Assembly: GCF_004010195.1 (NCBI RefSeq)
Contig: NC_057719.1
Coordinates: 23,377,217 to 23,441,216, forward strand
Origin: Chiloscyllium plagiosum
Taxonomy: Eukaryota
Direction: 5' to 3'
Length of the DNA: 64,000 bases
Within the stretch, counting starts at the first letter, position 1; each line of letters opens with the position of its first letter. The notes below the pieces were generated by a model, which did not search any database, had not been told where the DNA came from, and saw nothing but the letters and a program-made list of their open reading frames with translations. Positions 2,539-15,215 of the stretch are shown here, one piece after another. Both the position numbers and the translations under genes were made by a program.

Positions 2539-3665
2539 TATTAAAGTACGTATCAGAAATGGCTCAGGGAATCCCTGATGGACTCGACCTGTAACCTTTC
2601 TTGTTTCATCGTACTCTGTGATTGTCTGGAATATAAAACTCTTACAGACAGTATAGTTTAAATTATTACCTTTATTTACCAATGGCATCAATGTTGCACT
2701 ATAACGTAGATACCTACAAGCGAAAGTGAGGACTGCAGATGCTGGAGATCAGAGTCAAGATCAGAGTGGTGCTGGAAAAGCACAGCAGGTCAGGCAGCAT
2801 CCGAGGAGCAGGAAAATGAAGGTTTTCAGGCTAAAACCCTCCTTATTGCTACAAACAAGCTGTCTTTATACTGAAATTGGTATTAAAATTACAAAAATGC
2901 CACATGCCCTTAATCAGATAAGCAGCAATAAAATGGCAAAGGTTTGTAGAGTCACTTTGCTTAACTAACATGCCCAATATCATTGTCCTACAAAATGGCT
3001 ATTTCTTTTATAATCAGATTCCCAAAATGCAATTTAAATTCATAACATTCACAGATCTCAAGCTCCAGGGAACAACACACACATTCAATCCATGACAAGC
3101 CAGTGTTCACTCAACTCAGACCATCAAGGGTTAATCTTTCCACCAGCTTCCATCCTGTCTGTCTCTCTCACTCTCTCTCTCTCTCTCTGTGTCCCGTGAA
3201 CCCTTCAGTCAGTGAGTGTAATTTACAAAAGAATATTTTCTCTCTCACTCATGCATGAACATCTTCCAACTTTCAGCCTTTGTGTTTTCCTAGCCTGTCA
3301 GGGTAATGAGACATTCACTTCCCTGAACAGTCAAGATGAGGGAGCTGAGTTTTATAAATTCAAATCTGCTCAGTGTGCTATACAGGAAAATGTATCAGGA
3401 TTGTTCTATCATGTGCATATTCCATTCAGCTTATTAAATTACAAGTTCTTTTCATATTGAGTATGAGTTTTGTTAAGAGTCTTTGAACTAAACCAGCAAT
3501 TTAGTTATCTGACATTTCACTGTGAAATAGGCATGGCTCCAGCCTCCAGCATGAGAAGGAAGTATTGCCACACATTCCACAAGTGAGCAAATTTTATGAC
3601 CTTATTTACGCTGATCCATCGACATGAACAACAGATGCCCCAATTCTTCTGAACAACTATCAACA
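2539..3665 (-). repeat. ERV 3' LTR (contains a short Penelope-derived insert and a (CT)n tract)
   Basis: 2539-3118 aligns with 8063-8696 (e.g. GGGAATCCCTGATGGACTCGACCTGTA in both); on the minus strand it begins TGTTG directly after a polypurine tract. Confidence 0.85.
2722..2838 (-). mobile_element. Short Penelope-derived element inserted in the ERV 3' LTR
   Basis: GAAAGTGAGGACTGCAGATGCTGGAGATCAGAG...CAGGTCAGGCAGCATCC family; absent from the 5' LTR. Confidence 0.8.
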
Positions 3666-4374
3666 CCTCCCCCCCCCCAACTGTGGTCGAGTGCTTTCCC
3701 GCATCTCCTTAGCAGATGTAAGAAGATCATCAACGGAACATCCCGAAGCACCAATGCCATTTCCAGTGTAGCTGTGAGTACATTGGCATTCTACACGTAG
3801 ATTGCTGGTTTTATTTCTGCAAGTAGCATTGGGGTGACAAATGGGACACTTTAGTATTCCCATGGAATCATGGGTGGTGTTCAGATTCTAAATAGGGATA
3901 GCAAAATGGGTAGTGGTTAGCAGAGTGAGTGTTGTTAATTTTTGTTGTTTCATGGTCATCGGGGTTGTCTTGTCATGATTAGTAGTAATGACGTCTGTGA
4001 TAGTGATGGTTGTAGGTGATGATATGGTCGTCGGTATAGGGGCAAGAGTCATTGATAGGCATCTAACGTCACATTGGTTCGGCATGTGGCATCCTCCAAA
4101 ATATCATTTAGATTGATAAAAGTAATTCTTGTGACATTGTTCTTACCAACAAATTTACATACCACTTTGGTCACTTCTCCATTTGATTCATTAGCATTGA
4201 CACAAATTCCATTCATACAGTCACATTGGAGGTTTAGCCAGTCAGAGATATTACAGATGGGCAGATTACATCTGGGCGCATGTACTTGGTTTGTGTATTC
4301 ATCGGATGATTGCACTCGTACTAACACTAGGATTGTAGGGTGATACAAGCTTGCAATCTCCTTTGTAGACCCAT
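3660..4374 (-). pseudogene. Degraded env-position ORF: putative signal peptide, Cys-rich glycosylated domain, Thr-rich stalk, EGF-like domain
   Basis: Joined from ATG 4374 (MGLQRRLQACITL), ORF 4049..4348, ORF 3888..4085 and in-frame ORF 3660..3863 (CPICHPNATC...CQCTHSYTGNGIGASGC); needs two inferred frameshifts and one in-frame TAG at 3888-3890. Confidence 0.7.
3666..3678 (-). other. ERV polypurine tract
   Basis: Minus strand reads a G-run then AGG immediately before TGTTG (LTR start). Confidence 0.85.
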
Positions 4375-5480
4375 GTTGACCATCCTTCTGTTTTTACTGC
4401 AGTTTCAGTTGTCAGAAGAACTTAATAAGGGCCTTTCCAGCGAGGGCCCAATTTTTCCCAATTAAAGTCTTTTAATAATACATAGTCACCAGGGTTGATG
4501 TCTTTAAATGCTGGCACTCTTTCTTCTTTCTTCCCTCGATAGGCTTCTTTGACCTGTTGATGATAAGACTGCAATGCTTTGGTTAGCTTAATCAGGTACC
4601 TGTGCATTTCTTCTGCAATGACATGCACATCAACAGGATGTTGGGCCATCGATGGTGCAGATCAGGGAGTCCTCAGGGGCTTTCCATATACTAGTTCAGC
4701 CGCTGAGAATCCTGTCTTTTTCTGGATTGTAGTTCTCCTATTAAAAAGGGCAATTGGGAATACTTGCAGCCAATTAAGGCCTGTTTCCTCTACCAACTTG
4801 CTTGGCTGACCTTTTAAAATACCATTGGCTCTTTCTACAATTCCTGCTACTTGGGAATGGTAGGGACAACGGAATTTTTAATTCATATTCAGACTCTTAC
4901 ATAGTTCCTTGTTTAGCTCCACACAGAATGGGGGCCATTATCGGAAGAGACCTTTGCTGGTATCCCAAACCTGGGCATGATTTCCCTTAGTAGAATTTTA
5001 CGGCTAGTTTTTGCTGTGCAGTCAGTACAGGAATAAGCTTCAATCCGTTGACTAAATACATCAATAATCATGAAGCAATACTTATAACAATGGCATCTAG
5101 ATAATTCTATAAAATCTGACTGGACAGTATCAAGAGATGCACTTGGCAAGGGAGTTTCACCTGGTGGACACTTTACTCCTTTTCCGGGATTATGCTTTTT
5201 TGACAAATTAGACAATTTACAGCTGTTTGTTTTGCTTTTTCTTGCTGGTGGGGATTCCACCAAGTTTGGAGAATTCTGTCCACCATTCTCTCCTTACCTA
5301 CATGTGCGCGCGCATGAACATAATCAACTAGAATAGGCAAAAGCAAATCGGGCAGACATGTCTGTCCAATGGCATAATCCAAAGTTCAGTATAACTATTT
5401 ACATAACAACCATGGTTCATCCATGTTTGTGTTTCCTCATCAGAGGCGTGCCTCCGATGAGTCCGTATTTGCTCTCGATC
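4328..5480 (-). pseudogene. pol: Retroviral integrase (frameshifted)
   Basis: HARAH...CLIC zinc-binding motif, TVQSDFIEL, KVSSDNGPH, VERANG, PGDYVLLK, LGPRWKGPY*VLLTT across ORFs 5173..5382, 4913..5263, 4422..4649. Confidence 0.92.
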
Positions 5481-5539
5481 AGGCATGGTCAGAGTATCAG
5501 TAGAGGATAAAGGAGAAGCTTCCTTTGGCTTCCTGTTTG

Positions 5540-6105
5540 TCATTTGGGTGACCATAGCTCTTTGTCAAAACCTGCCACCTTAGCAGCCACGTAAGCAGCA
5601 TGGTTGCCTTTAGTGACATCAGAAGCATCGGAAGAGTGAGCGGAACTTTGATAATTACCAATTGAGAGGGAAGTTGAGTAGCGCAGAGGAGGTTCGTAAC
5701 ACAAGCAGCATTGAGGATAGGAGTTCCTAACGAGGTAAGAAAGCTGCACTGTTGCCAGAGTTGACCAAAATCATGGGCACATCCAAAGGTGTAGTGAAAG
5801 TCATTGTAGACATTAGCTGACTTCCCTTCAGCAAGTATGCAGGCATGGGTGAGAGCAAGGAGCTCGGCTTGTTGGGTAGAGCAGGGTGGATCGATGGAAT
5901 AAGCTTCTATCATTTGAGACAAAGTGACAATCGCATATCCTGACATGCATTTGCCTTCTGGAGAGATGGAAGAAGAACCATCAACAAAAAGTGTAAAATC
6001 TGGGTTAACAAGAGCCTGATCCGCAAGATTAGGATGTGACTTAGTAACAAGGTTATTTATAACAACACAGTCATGGAGAGGATCAAGGTCCATCCTCAGA
6101 GCTAG
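5540..6105 (-). pseudogene. pol: Retroviral RNase H with the end of the connection region
   Basis: ORF 5497..6093: HDC, TLFVDGSS, GYAIV, TQQAELLALT, NVYNDFHYTFG; ORF 5540..5749: AHS..GNHAA. Confidence 0.92.
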
Positions 6106-6146
6106 CGGTAACCATGGGAAGATTCAAGGGATGTTGATGACCTAAG

Positions 6147-7800
6147 TCAGGGAGCCAGGTTTGGAAAGGTTTCTGTACAGTAAAAGGGGCAAACTACTGG
6201 GGTCCCTGAAGAGGGTGAATCAGAAGGTTGCTGGTGGCTTCCATTCTGGTGATCAACATGGGGCTGCTTTGGGAAAGAGCAGTTCTTGGACTAATGTCCT
6301 GGTTGATTACAGTTGACGCAAATGTCTGGCCGTTTAGGGAATCTTAAGGGTGGGAGAAGTGGAGAGGAATAGGAAGAGGATGTATAGGGAGTAAGGGGCA
6401 TCATGGACTGTTGGGTAGGGTACCTAGCAGGACCCCAAGGTCCATAGGATATTGTTGATATATGGTACCAATCCTATTGTCTTGCCATACTGGATGACAG
6501 TATGAGGGTTCCATTTGATAGCCTGGATGGTCTTGCGGATGAGAAGGTCTATTCGGAGTTCTGGTTTTAGGTCTAGCCCCTGCAGTTTGGGCAAATTCGG
6601 TCTTGACCTTAACTGTTGAGGCCTTAGTGTCGGGGTCCTTTAGTTCCCAGAAGTAACATACTTCTCAGCTGAATTGTTCAACATTGGCATGTTGCCAGTG
6701 CATATTACGGGTTTTAAGAGCTTTCTGTACCTAGCCAGGAAGGACAGTCATACATAAGGCATTAAATTGGGTAATTGTCATTGTGGGTACTGAGAATTAC
6801 GAGAGTAAGCACCATAGCAGTCCTTAAAGCAGACAAGGAAATCCTCAGCTCCTTTACTTGAACGAGGTTTGTGTGTAATAATCCAATCTGACCTATTAGG
6901 TTCAGCTGGATGCATTAGCATGAGTTGGGTATGATTATTACATTGCAAAATTTCTAAGAACTTAGTCCATTTTCAGGGGAAAAAGCGCATTCTATGAGGT
7001 TAAGTAAGTCTTGGGAGGCCACTTTGTTAATGGTCCTAGTCCAATTAATATAACTAACGAATCCTTCGGGAGTCTTTCCACAGTCTGAAGGCTCATTGAT
7101 GATGCTAGAGATTTCATGAGGCTTCCAAGGCTGATAAAGATTAACAAATCCCTGATTCTGGATAAGCAGGATTGGGGACTCTTCTAGTCGGGAAATTTCC
7201 CTTTGGCCATTTCATATCAGGGTGAGTGTGAGGACTAACGTTAAGGACCCTAAAATTTTATTGTAATTATCAATGTCTTCAGGACTCATTTATGGACGGG
7301 GGAGGGGTCTGATTTTCATTGACCGGTTTCCCTTTCCTTTGGGACCCCTGAAATTTCAGATTAGGTTGTGGTTCTCTGCCTTTTTTATTTTTTGCTTTTT
7401 TTTCTCTAGCCAACTCCAATTCTGTTTCTAAATCATGTGCTTCACATTTGCATTTTAGTTCTGTCCAATCTAATTCAAATCCTTCCTCAGGTAATGGACT
7501 GATACCCCTTTTAATACAGCTTTGTCTCCATGATGACTGCATGGATTTTCCCCACTCTTCTTTAGCTACATTTTTTCCATATAGCTGGCTTTTCTTTTTA
7601 CTCCCACAACCGTTTTTCCATATCGCTTATTCAACTTCCATAAGTAGCTTTAGATCATGTGTGCCTCACAGAGGTTAGTCCTTATTGTATTGGGCAGCTG
7701 CACCTGATATTCCCCTGAATTGTTTCTCAAAATTAGGATACATACTGACTATCTCTATTAAGGGACATTTGCCCTCTATCTTATCTAGGGTTGCACCCAT
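6147..7800 (-). pseudogene. gag: Retroviral gag (degraded)
   Basis: Starts MGATLDK at 7800 (Gly2), in frame with ORF 7279..7542; capsid-like LYQPWKPHEISSII near 7140; zinc knuckle CVNCNQPGH*SKNC at 6279-6320; that frame ends TGA at 6147-6149. Confidence 0.85.
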
Positions 7801-8062
7801 ACTTATCCTATTTATTGTATACCTTCACAAAATTCTTGCTGTTGTCTCTATTTTTAGTGCCTATTTAAATCATCTCATTCGGGGTTCCATCAGGGTATGT
7901 GAGAGTGAAATGGGAGAGGCGGCATACAAAAATACAGACAGAGAGCAACCAAGGTATAACCTTAGCTTGTGGGCCTGTTGGTCTCTAATCTGACCTTTAG
8001 ATGAAGCTCCTCTTTTCTGGTTTCACTCACATGAATCCCTTGTTGGAACCCTGGTCTCAAAT

Positions 8063-8696
8063 TGTTAAAGTCCCTATTTGAGACAGCTTAGGGAATCCCT
8101 GATGGACTCGACCTGTAGCCTCTGTTATTTCATCCCAGAGATCGTACTCTGTGGTAGTCTGGTATATAAAACTCTTACAGTTTACATTATTACCTTTTAT
8201 TTACCAATGGCATCAATGTTACACTATTACATAGATATCTACCTTACTCGTAAGAGCTCTCTCAGGCTTCTCCCCTTATTGCTGCAAACAAGCTGTCATT
8301 ACACAGAAATTGGTATTAAAATTACAAAAATGCCACATGTCCTTAACCAGATAAGCAGCAATAAAATGGCAAATGTCTGCAGAGGAAGAGAAGCTCTGAG
8401 TATGTTTGACTAATTAAGCTACACACACATCAAAGTGGGAAACCTTGATCCAGCCAGGCCAAATGCTCAATTGCTTTAGATAGTACATTATGATGAGAGA
8501 CTAGTCTCAACTATGTGAGAAAGGTCATAGGATCACCTTGCTCAGCCAATATGTCTAGTATCATTGTCTTACAAAATGGCTGTTTCTTTTAAAATCATCT
8601 TAGATTCCCAAAATGCAACTTAAATTCATAACACACCCGATTCTCAAGCTCCAGGGAGCAACACACATTTAATCCATGCCAGTGTTCACTCAAATC
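8063..8696 (-). repeat. ERV 5' LTR (partial, truncated by gap)
   Basis: Homologous to 2539-3118; minus-strand end ...TTTAACA. Confidence 0.88.
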
Positions 8697-9196
8697 NNNN
8701 NNNNNNNNNNNNNNNNNNNNNNNNNNNNNNNNNNNNNNNNNNNNNNNNNNNNNNNNNNNNNNNNNNNNNNNNNNNNNNNNNNNNNNNNNNNNNNNNNNNN
8801 NNNNNNNNNNNNNNNNNNNNNNNNNNNNNNNNNNNNNNNNNNNNNNNNNNNNNNNNNNNNNNNNNNNNNNNNNNNNNNNNNNNNNNNNNNNNNNNNNNNN
8901 NNNNNNNNNNNNNNNNNNNNNNNNNNNNNNNNNNNNNNNNNNNNNNNNNNNNNNNNNNNNNNNNNNNNNNNNNNNNNNNNNNNNNNNNNNNNNNNNNNNN
9001 NNNNNNNNNNNNNNNNNNNNNNNNNNNNNNNNNNNNNNNNNNNNNNNNNNNNNNNNNNNNNNNNNNNNNNNNNNNNNNNNNNNNNNNNNNNNNNNNNNNN
9101 NNNNNNNNNNNNNNNNNNNNNNNNNNNNNNNNNNNNNNNNNNNNNNNNNNNNNNNNNNNNNNNNNNNNNNNNNNNNNNNNNNNNNNNNNNNNNNNN
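8697..9196. other. Assembly gap (500 N), probably hiding the rest of the 5' LTR
   Basis: N run; about 550 bp of LTR is unaccounted for. Confidence 0.95.
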
Positions 9197-13598: not shown

Positions 13599-13727
13599 TC
13601 ATACACATATGCCATACCTCCCAAAGAATGACAGATCACACTAAACACAATATTCCTTCAGAGGACATAGATTTAAGGTGAGAACAGTAAGGTTTAAAAG
13701 GGACCTAAGGGGGAGATTTTTCATGGA

Positions 13728-14863
13728 TAGTCATAGAGTCATAGAGATGTACAGCATGGAAACAGACCCTTTGGACCAACTTGTCCATGCCGACCAGATA
13801 TCCCAATCCAATCTAGTCCCACCTGCCAGCACCTGGCCCATATCCCTCCAAACCCTTCCTATTTATATACACATCCAAATGCCTCTGAAATGTTGCAATT
13901 GTACCAGACTCCACCACATCTTCTGGCAGCTCATTCCATACACGTACCTCCCTCTGCGTGAAAAAGTTGCCCCTTAGGTCTCTTTTATATCCTTCCCCTC
14001 TCACCCTAAACCTATGCCCTTTAGTTATGGATTCCCTGACCTCAGGGAAAAGACTTTGTCTAGTTATCCTATCCATGCCCCTCATAATTCTGTAAACCTC
14101 TATAAGGTCACCCCTCAGCCTCCGACGCTCCAGGGAAAACAGCCCCAGCCTGTTCAGCCTCTCCCTATAGCTCAAATCCTCCAAACCTGGCAATATTCTT
14201 GTAAATCTTTTCTGAACCCTTTCAAGTTTCACAACATCTTTCCGATAGGAGGGAGACCAGAATTGCACGCAATATTCCAACAGTGGCCTAACCAATGTCC
14301 TGTACAGCCGCAACATGACCTCCCAACTCCTGTACTCAATACTCTGACCAATAAAGGAAAGCATACCAAATGCCTTCTTCACTATCCTATCTACCTGCGA
14401 CTCCACTTTCAAGGAGCTATGAACCNNNNNNNNNNNNNNNNNNNNNNNNNNNNNNNNNNNNNNNNNNNNNNNNNNNNNNNNNNNNNNNNNNNNNNNNNNN
14501 NNNNNNNNNNNNNNNNNNNNNNNNNNNNNNNNNNCAACCCTCCACCACCACCCTCTGTCTTCTACCTTTGAGCCAGTTCTGTATCCAAATGGCTAGTTCT
14601 CCCTGTATTCCATGAGATCTAACCTTGCTAATCAGTCTCCCATGGGGAGCCTTGTCGAATGCCTTATTGAAGTCCATATGGATCACATCTACTGCTCTGC
14701 CCTCATCAATCTTCTTTGTTACTTCTTCATAAAACTCAATCAAGTTTGTGAGACATGATTTCCCATGCACAAAGCCATGTTGACTATCCCTAATCAGTCC
14801 TTTCCTCTCCAAATACATGTCCATCTTGTCCCTCAGGATTCCCTCCAACAACTTGCCCACCAC
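13728..14863 (-). mobile_element. CR1 LINE fragment spanning a 109-N gap (14426-14534)
   Basis: ORFs 13813..14412 and 14417..15016 with CR1 RT motifs; tail (ATAGAGTC) at ~13727-13746. Confidence 0.92.
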
Positions 14864-14869
14864 TGAGTT

Positions 14870-15215
14870 CGAGGTGGTGTATGTATGGAATGAGCTGCCA
14901 GTGGAAGTGGTGGAAGCTGGTACAATTATAACATTTAAGAAGCAATTGGATGGGTACATGATTATGAAGGGTGTAGAGAGATATGAGTCAAGATTAGAGT
15001 AATGCTGGAAAAGCACAGCAGGTCAGGCAGCATCCGAGGAGCAGGAAAATTGATGGTTCAGGCAGGAGTCCTTCATCAGGAACCTTCATCATTCAAGGGA
15101 TAGGAGTCAAGTGCTGGTAAATGGGACTAGATTAATTTAGGATATCTGGTTGGTATGGACGAGTTGGACCAAGTGGTCTGTTTCCATGCTGTATACCCTT
15201 ATGACTCTATGAGTA
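14870..15215 (+). mobile_element. CR1 3' end with a Penelope-derived insert (~14985-15090)
   Basis: VWNELPVEVVEAG, 3' UTR and ATGACTCTATGA tail; insert GCTGGAAAAGCACAGCAGGTCAGGCAGCATCC...CTTCATCAGG. Confidence 0.82.

Follow-up and report, generated by a model that had tools for sequence, protein, structure and literature searches.

The retroviral copy described here is best explained, with a probability of roughly three in four, as a dead provirus with an env truncated by a deletion of its own. Its family would have made a gamma-type Env with a likely host-captured tip of EGF, cbEGF and mucin modules, probably serving optional attachment or shielding. The copy lies in a stretch of 64,000 nucleotides of Chiloscyllium plagiosum (NC_057719.1, positions 23,377,217 to 23,441,216), hereafter called the window. 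The EGF-bearing Env is real; capture of a host domain into SU is already known, and it is the class of module that differs. The precedent we found is the SIRP IgV of a 2024 preprint, to which the shark family adds the EGF, cbEGF and mucin module class, a cartilaginous fish, and a pair of subfamilies with and without the module. The family favours a view of the N-terminal slot of gamma-type Env as a plug-in site that is filled from host genes and works first as an accessory.

The window provirus

On the minus strand the provirus is bounded by LTRs at ~2541-3722 and 8060-8697; the second of them abuts an N gap. Its features are the following.

2541..3722, minus strand: 3' LTR without its first ~20 nt (aligned by blastn with L031 6611-7941 and the 5' LTR)
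3660..3722, minus strand: U3 stretch, including a G-run, read by the shortened env frame
3722..3726, minus strand: junction of a ~1.83 kb deletion (cbEGF, domain X, SU core, TM, PPT and LTR start lost)
3726-3737, minus strand: first acidic residues of the deleted cbEGF, directly after EGF2
3738..3848, minus strand: EGF2, six-Cys EGF_3 domain (Pfam PF12947, E 9.8e-8)
3870..4052, minus strand: mucin-like stalk rich in Thr, Ser and Pro; in-frame stop at 3888-3890
4060..4270, minus strand: Cys-rich region, weakly EGF-like (PF24887, E 0.0023, below the cut-off), frame break at ~4067
4305..4374, minus strand: start of env with a predicted signal peptide, in overlap with the IN end; frame break at ~4336
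4327..5330, minus strand: integrase, broken (rve E 9.4e-10, MLVIN_C E 1.7e-4)
5497..6084, minus strand: RNase H, broken (RNase_H E 7.1e-11)
6084..6087, minus strand: junction of a second deletion of ~2.15 kb (protease, RT and connection lost), L037 7544 to 9708
6090..7750, minus strand: gag, broken, assigned by position and sister-copy match (no Pfam gag matches)
8040..8058, minus strand: primer-binding site, decayed in this copy
8060..8697, minus strand: 5' LTR, 3' part, the remainder falling in the N gap

The locus is an ordinary dead provirus with two deletions. The env junction at 3722-3726 joins position 4780 of the sister copy L031 to its position 6611. It was seen in the window alone (1/51 copies); the full query length was likewise matched only by the window, the best sister copies ending at window position 3726. 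Although this junction is taken from the assembly and is absent from the listed read-contig pieces, the env loss is almost certainly a copy-specific deletion. The second junction is crossed by a 387-nt contig of run X1 with 0 differences, and the sister-copy stretch corresponding to this pol deletion gave RVP and RVT_1 matches. After integration the window copy would have been deprived of protease-RT and of three quarters of env on the 3' side, and it decayed.

Much of what the initial annotation had read from the letters alone was recovered: the minus-strand element, the ATG at 4374 overlapping the IN end, the signal-like hydrophobic stretch, the Cys-rich region, the Thr/Pro-rich stretch and the six-Cys domain of EGF_3 type (32.5 bits, cut-off 28.5). 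The break claimed near 4340 maps near 4336, the second one near 4067, and the single in-frame TAG is that inside the stalk. Of the seven sequons three were confirmed by count and four by eye in the 4049-4393 frame. Furin site, fusion peptide, CX6CC and anchor are indeed all missing from this copy. The IN stop is at 4327-4329 and not at 4328-4330. The frame had been said to run through the PPT. That candidate, at ~3670, was rejected: in comparison with L031 and L032, where the PPT directly precedes the LTR start, the G-run at ~3666-3678 is U3 sequence. As EGF2 is joined in the window ~20 nt into U3, the true PPT is gone with the deletion, and the last ~22 codons of the proposed ~235 aa protein are LTR read-through. 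Nor is the ~670 bp between IN and LTR the design of the family, since the same interval of L031 holds an env of ~2.4 kb.

The signal-like peptide, the seven sequons and the missing anchor had suggested a secreted mucin/EGF glycoprotein of ~235 aa in the env slot, kept by the virus or the host like the soluble Envs of cats and primates. Refrex-1 is a precedent (PMC9245640, as far as its text was available), which the window copy resembles in having a signal peptide and SU N-terminus without TM. Further points in favour are the pN/pS of 0.55 of its env (27 N, 16 S, 191 codons), the insertion common to a second species, and one contig each from runs X1 and X13 with another length at the first break, which cannot be placed at the window locus. 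However, the window frame is broken three times, by a stop and two frameshifts, one within the signal peptide, whereas Refrex-1-type Envs are intact, expressed and functional. The value of 0.55 falls within the range of 0.29-1.93 of the 22 scored copies, the junction is private to this copy, and the terminal branch of 0.076 is like those of dead sisters. That the window copy encodes or ever encoded such a protein is therefore hardly credible, and as a design of the family it was rejected, for sister copies run on into full Env. A full env in sisters with a copy-specific deletion in the window is what the annotation had itself named as speaking against its proposal. Its other suggestion, an unusual SU whose TM was deleted, proved right: the sisters continue into TM and only the window has the junction. 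The 'ordinary SU fragment' it had also considered fits as regards the deletion and fails as regards 'ordinary', since the full Env of the family includes the EGF and mucin modules.

K2P between the two LTRs is 0.125 (438 columns). The boundary of flank and LTR is spanned by a contig from a second species, so the insertion is older than that species split. Env RNA reads were absent from ~2% of run X21 and from X16 over 3670-4354, the data being too thin to weigh either way. The 3' LTR is interrupted by a SINE insertion (~2722-2830) and an internal gap at 2951; short SINE-like repeats are numerous elsewhere in the window too. LINE fragments at 1-2080 and 13722-14990, in opposite orientation and 85-90% alike, flank the provirus region; by their motifs we take them to be CR1/L2-type.

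Env of the sister copies

Of 234 candidates from the DNA search of the shark's own genome 40 were scored, with 43 matches. Copies were tallied as n=51, the window included; L080 (no match), L089 (TM only) and the short contigs L013, L027, L029 and L030 were omitted. L044 and L045 are counted as local duplicates. The two (G000:C8:81.24-81.26 Mb) are near-adjacent, of identical structure and about 2x the usual divergence, likely a local duplication, so L045 was excluded from dN/dS and trees.

EGF2 is present in 23/51 copies. In all 22 of these other than the window it is followed by a second EGF (cbEGF), and in 18 of the 22 the sequence reaches fusion peptide, ISD, CX6CC and anchor; the remaining four have different deletions of their own. 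Read in natural frames, the N part of Env consists of a signal-like peptide, Cys-rich region, mucin, EGF, cbEGF and domain X (~85 aa), and the C part of a CXXC-bearing SU core, basic cleavage site, fusion peptide, ISD, CX6CC, anchor and tail, by coordinates ~810 codons in full. L002 has a single open frame from env start to domain X and L071 a single one of 340 codons, running from EGF2 on through the SU core; the env start and signal region is open in sister copies such as L002, L010 and L025. Signal peptide and anchor were both judged by eye as hydrophobic stretches. Three long-form copies, L071, L072 and L049, have deletions of their own that affect the N-terminus of env.

The gamma-type marks tabulated in PMC9967133 (in its available part) were found in the natural frames of the family Env. 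CXXC of SU was read in several copies, K-x-K-R followed by a hydrophobic stretch gives the cleavage site and fusion peptide, the TM region with ISD and CX6CC occurs in 18/23 EGF2 copies and 22/27 short copies, and anchor and tail are present in sister copies. TM pieces match TLV_coat and the Ebola-like HR1-HR2 below the cut-off. From the window the SU core, its CXXC and TM are missing. The closest RT in PDB is of MLV type, and pol is class I. We take the primer-binding site of sister copies to be tRNA-Ser-like.

In the alignment with env homologues the SU core starts directly after domain X, where several relatives begin behind their signal peptide, so the first ~340 residues are an addition. 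As predicted from its sequence, the family Env is a gamma-type protein with ~340 extra N-terminal residues. Separate loci with an EGF-bearing env number at least 22 and are spread over many contigs, and the tree is star-like, which indicates that the module was acquired before germline integration.

Between protease and RT sister copies carry a domain of ~135 aa with two H-x-T motifs (L039:622-1014, L031:705-1127, L041:1424-1843), which gave no Pfam matches and whose region is deleted in the window at 6084-6087. By its pattern it is presumably a 2H phosphoesterase. 2H domains are known from fish retroviruses (PMC9503650, available part).

Long and short subfamilies

The copies form two subfamilies. 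The short one (27 copies) is without mucin and EGF2 and without the adjoining halves of the Cys-rich region (its second half) and of cbEGF (its first half), a loss of 181 codons in frame (L031 frame), and several of its members read through the join in one open frame. All 27 retain the C-terminal half of cbEGF. The LTR interior differs between the subfamilies as well, and they are separate clades (100/100) both in pol (28/50 copies usable) and in env (29/50), in unrooted trees without an outgroup env. The window copy falls among the long copies, on a star-like terminal branch.

Between the subfamilies dN/dS, with a neutral expectation of 0.74-0.90, was 0.10 (0.01-0.29) for IN, 0.37 (0.19-0.68) for the SU core, 0.15 (0.07-0.27) for the SU end/TM and 0.09 (CI 0-0.53; 22 codons) for the C-terminal part of cbEGF. 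Values for domain X (0.40, CI 0.18-0.92) and for the signal region (0.43, CI 0.16-1.30) were not clearly sub-neutral. The sub-neutral values indicate purifying selection on the shared env and suggest that env was working while the lineages diverged. Within subfamilies values of dN/dS type were 0.5-1.1, fitting decay after integration. Within long copies pN/pS was 0.76 against an expected 0.86-0.90, shared variants were 18 N : 8 S, and no clear signal of selection on the EGF/mucin insert itself was found. The EGF/mucin module looks dispensable, judging from the sequences of the short copies.

The long form is in register with the EGF-cbEGF pair of uromodulin and the short one keeps half a domain, from which we infer that the long form is the older; the argument is one of domain logic, the tree being unrooted. 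A later in-frame loss of the 181 codons would have given rise to the short subfamily, which still spread, and which for entry would have depended on its SU core, on domain X and on what is left as a hybrid EGF.

Possible role of the N-terminal modules

We propose that virions displayed the modules on a glycosylated stalk at the apex of the Env trimer, where they would add optional attachment or shielding to a fusion machine that is otherwise standard. The lineage without most of the module spread at least as widely in the sample, for which reason an accessory role seems to us somewhat the better bet, in parallel with the Hotzel model and the EGF-Env MLV discussed below.

The EGF-cbEGF pair could instead be the primary receptor-binding domain, the short form being a receptor switch or binding through its hybrid EGF. 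The pair does occupy the N-terminal RBD slot, by alignment and by the available text of the Hotzel preprint (bioRxiv 10.1101/2024.03.17.585361), and the cbEGF C-half, kept throughout the short subfamily, has the lowest dN/dS, albeit on 22 codons. Yet the short form amplified without EGF2 and without the acidic, calcium-binding-type start of cbEGF, and extension-free relatives have the same SU core. We regard this possibility as unlikely.

The filovirus GP has a mucin domain thought to shield against antibodies. In a similar way the shark module could be mainly a shield of glycans and self-mimicry without a ligand, a view not exclusive of our preferred reading and, taken by itself, rather more doubtful than receptor binding. 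It agrees with the mucin-like stretch of ~60 Thr/Ser/Pro-rich residues and its numerous sequons, with the dispensability in frame, and with shared mucin variants that are mostly non-synonymous (10 N : 2 S). What it leaves unexplained is the upkeep of two six-Cys domains with a host-like consensus, in which the 11 scored Cys columns are Cys in 14-20 of 19-21 copies.

Relatives and known systems

With a short-form copy (stops as X) as query against 1.84 billion proteins we found 43 env homologues, all matching from residue 139 onward and thus in the SU core and TM only; none of the 43 had an EGF Pfam match. Chiloscyllium, Hemiscyllium and Callorhinchus supplied the closest of them, in agreement with a carpet-shark host. 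Full or partial relatives with an EGF-env were not found in the protein database by a word-based, weak search. Three Astyanax 'syncytin-A-like' proteins (P0023, P0058, P0059) have an Ig V-set match before the SU core (E 1e-4 to 3e-4, below the cut-off), so that they too may have a host-type domain in this slot. P0016 has a long insertion at residues ~215-345, after the C-terminal motif of SU and before TM begins, Ig-like by eye. P0017, annotated as a Hemiscyllium GPCR, has a C-terminus made of integrase and TM of the EGF-env ERV family, likely a gene-model fusion.

The gamma-type Env of anamniote ERVs described by Chen et al. (bioRxiv 10.1101/2021.11.23.469661, available part) has CXXC, cleavage site, fusion peptide, ISD, CX6CC and anchor in common with the shark family, which adds the ~340-residue N-terminal extension of EGF, cbEGF and mucin. 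Their classification is by TM and includes such ERVs of Chiloscyllium, so the EGF-env family may be in their data; the main text, to which our search was confined, mentions neither EGF nor mucin. Host gene capture has been reported for anamniote ERVs as OGFr in pol.

Env-Dbi and Env-Per of the Hotzel preprint, in its available text, likewise have a SIRP-derived IgV in the N-terminal SU slot, called there the first host domain in a retroviral SU. As in Env-Dbi, the host-type domain of the shark family stands in frame before the SU core, without introns. Env-Dbi is mammalian and alpha-like, without CXXC and with a clear donor, whereas the shark family has EGF and mucin, CXXC, a SUSD1-like donor lead only, and, unlike Env-Dbi, a derived subfamily that lost most of the host-type part. 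In the model given there newly gained domains first serve generic cell binding, the IgV being an accessory cell-binding step. An engineered MLV with an N-terminal EGF replicated, and its EGF was deleted when it hindered entry (PMC544597, available part); EGF before a working SU and EGF deletion during replication are common to both systems, although that virus is artificial and carries an EGFR ligand, while the shark modules are adhesion/matrix-type EGF and cbEGF. A natural EGF-bearing Env was not found in the literature searched (most subscription papers being beyond its scope), and a term search of the available text of PMC8672886, PMC12813294, PMC10072453, PMC9967133 and the Chen and Hotzel preprints gave no relevant mention of EGF.

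Origin of the module

EGF_3 (PF12947) was matched in sister pieces with 34.9, 43.8 and, in a third, 23 bits, beside the window's 32.5 (cut-off 28.5). Long copies show the cbEGF motifs, an acidic start of D-x-D-E type and C-x-N-x4-Y-x-C-x-C, although EGF_CA (PF07645) scored at best 21.3 bits, below the Pfam cut-off of 27. For the first Cys-rich region the match was to Stabilin-EGF, at the sub-threshold E-value given above. EGF2 and cbEGF form one frame without introns in front of the SU core, and align in register with uromodulin EGF1-2 across the short-form breakpoint. AlphaFold gave pLDDT 36 both for EGF2-cbEGF-X (15 rows) and for the EGF pair alone, a value too low for a confident fold. No Pfam or PDB assignment was found for domain X, whose Atlas matches (<= 0.82) to SUSD1, SNED1 and FN3 clusters are under the trust level.

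The module is probably of host origin, and the idea of host capture raised by the initial annotation stands. A segment of spliced host mRNA was likely captured into the N-terminal Env slot by recombination during reverse transcription. That the EGF likeness is convergent or came from another virus, without direct host capture, would agree with the outcome of DNA and protein searches of the shark's own genome, in which no close host donor was found. It is nevertheless highly improbable in view of the tandem EGF_3 and cbEGF in host order and register, the Pfam match above cut-off and the absence of EGF from all 43 env homologues.

In the protein database the viral EGF pair matched generic EGF arrays (37-43%), and in PDB uromodulin ranked first and cubilin was absent from the matches. 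Host EGF matches were 37-53%, with unrelated chance frames scoring equal or higher. From 1313 candidates the genome-wide EGF_3 scan yielded 150 scored matches; 20 hand-picked loci were compared, 6 of which came from another search. The spacing pattern C-x2-C-H-x-N/D-A-x-C had 77 genome matches, 6 of them ERV copies; among the 38 non-ERV matches examined (33 others were left out) the sole real EGF was an exon of a SUSD1-like gene, so called for its architecture, in which EGF_3 and EGF_CA exons occur with sushi and Fn3_PTPRU ones. The first two of its EGF exons agree with the viral pair in the same order (17/32 and 11/20 columns), each beating 300/300 shuffles, but in profile ranking SUSD1 is below chance frames and other host exons score as high. 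On these sequence comparisons the SUSD1-like gene is a candidate donor, a lead and not a unique one. The N-termini of both uromodulin and SUSD1 have an EGF_3 with a C-x2-C-H-x2-A-x-C start and then cbEGF, as in the shark Env; the sushi or ZP part that follows in them does not follow in the shark Env, and the scores single out neither. More specifically, though tentatively, a shark retrovirus may have taken a SUSD1- or uromodulin-like EGF-cbEGF head, carried it on a mucin stalk at the Env tip and bound its natural ligand, one lineage later shedding most of it. If so, it would be a natural case of a ligand-display retrovirus, and one genome would preserve both gain and loss of a host-derived binding module.

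Three loci with an EGF2-like stretch were rejected as duplicated non-viral sequence. In the SUSD1-like locus (L112-L117, G000:C2:112170001-112230000) near-identical sushi-type exons follow the two EGF exons, eight of them in L113-L116. The EGF_3 genome scan also revealed a host array of ~100 similar EGF_3 exons at G000:C19:5671515-5988709 and, at C9:28620003-28628304, single frames of 734 and 899 aa made of tandem EGF_3 repeats.
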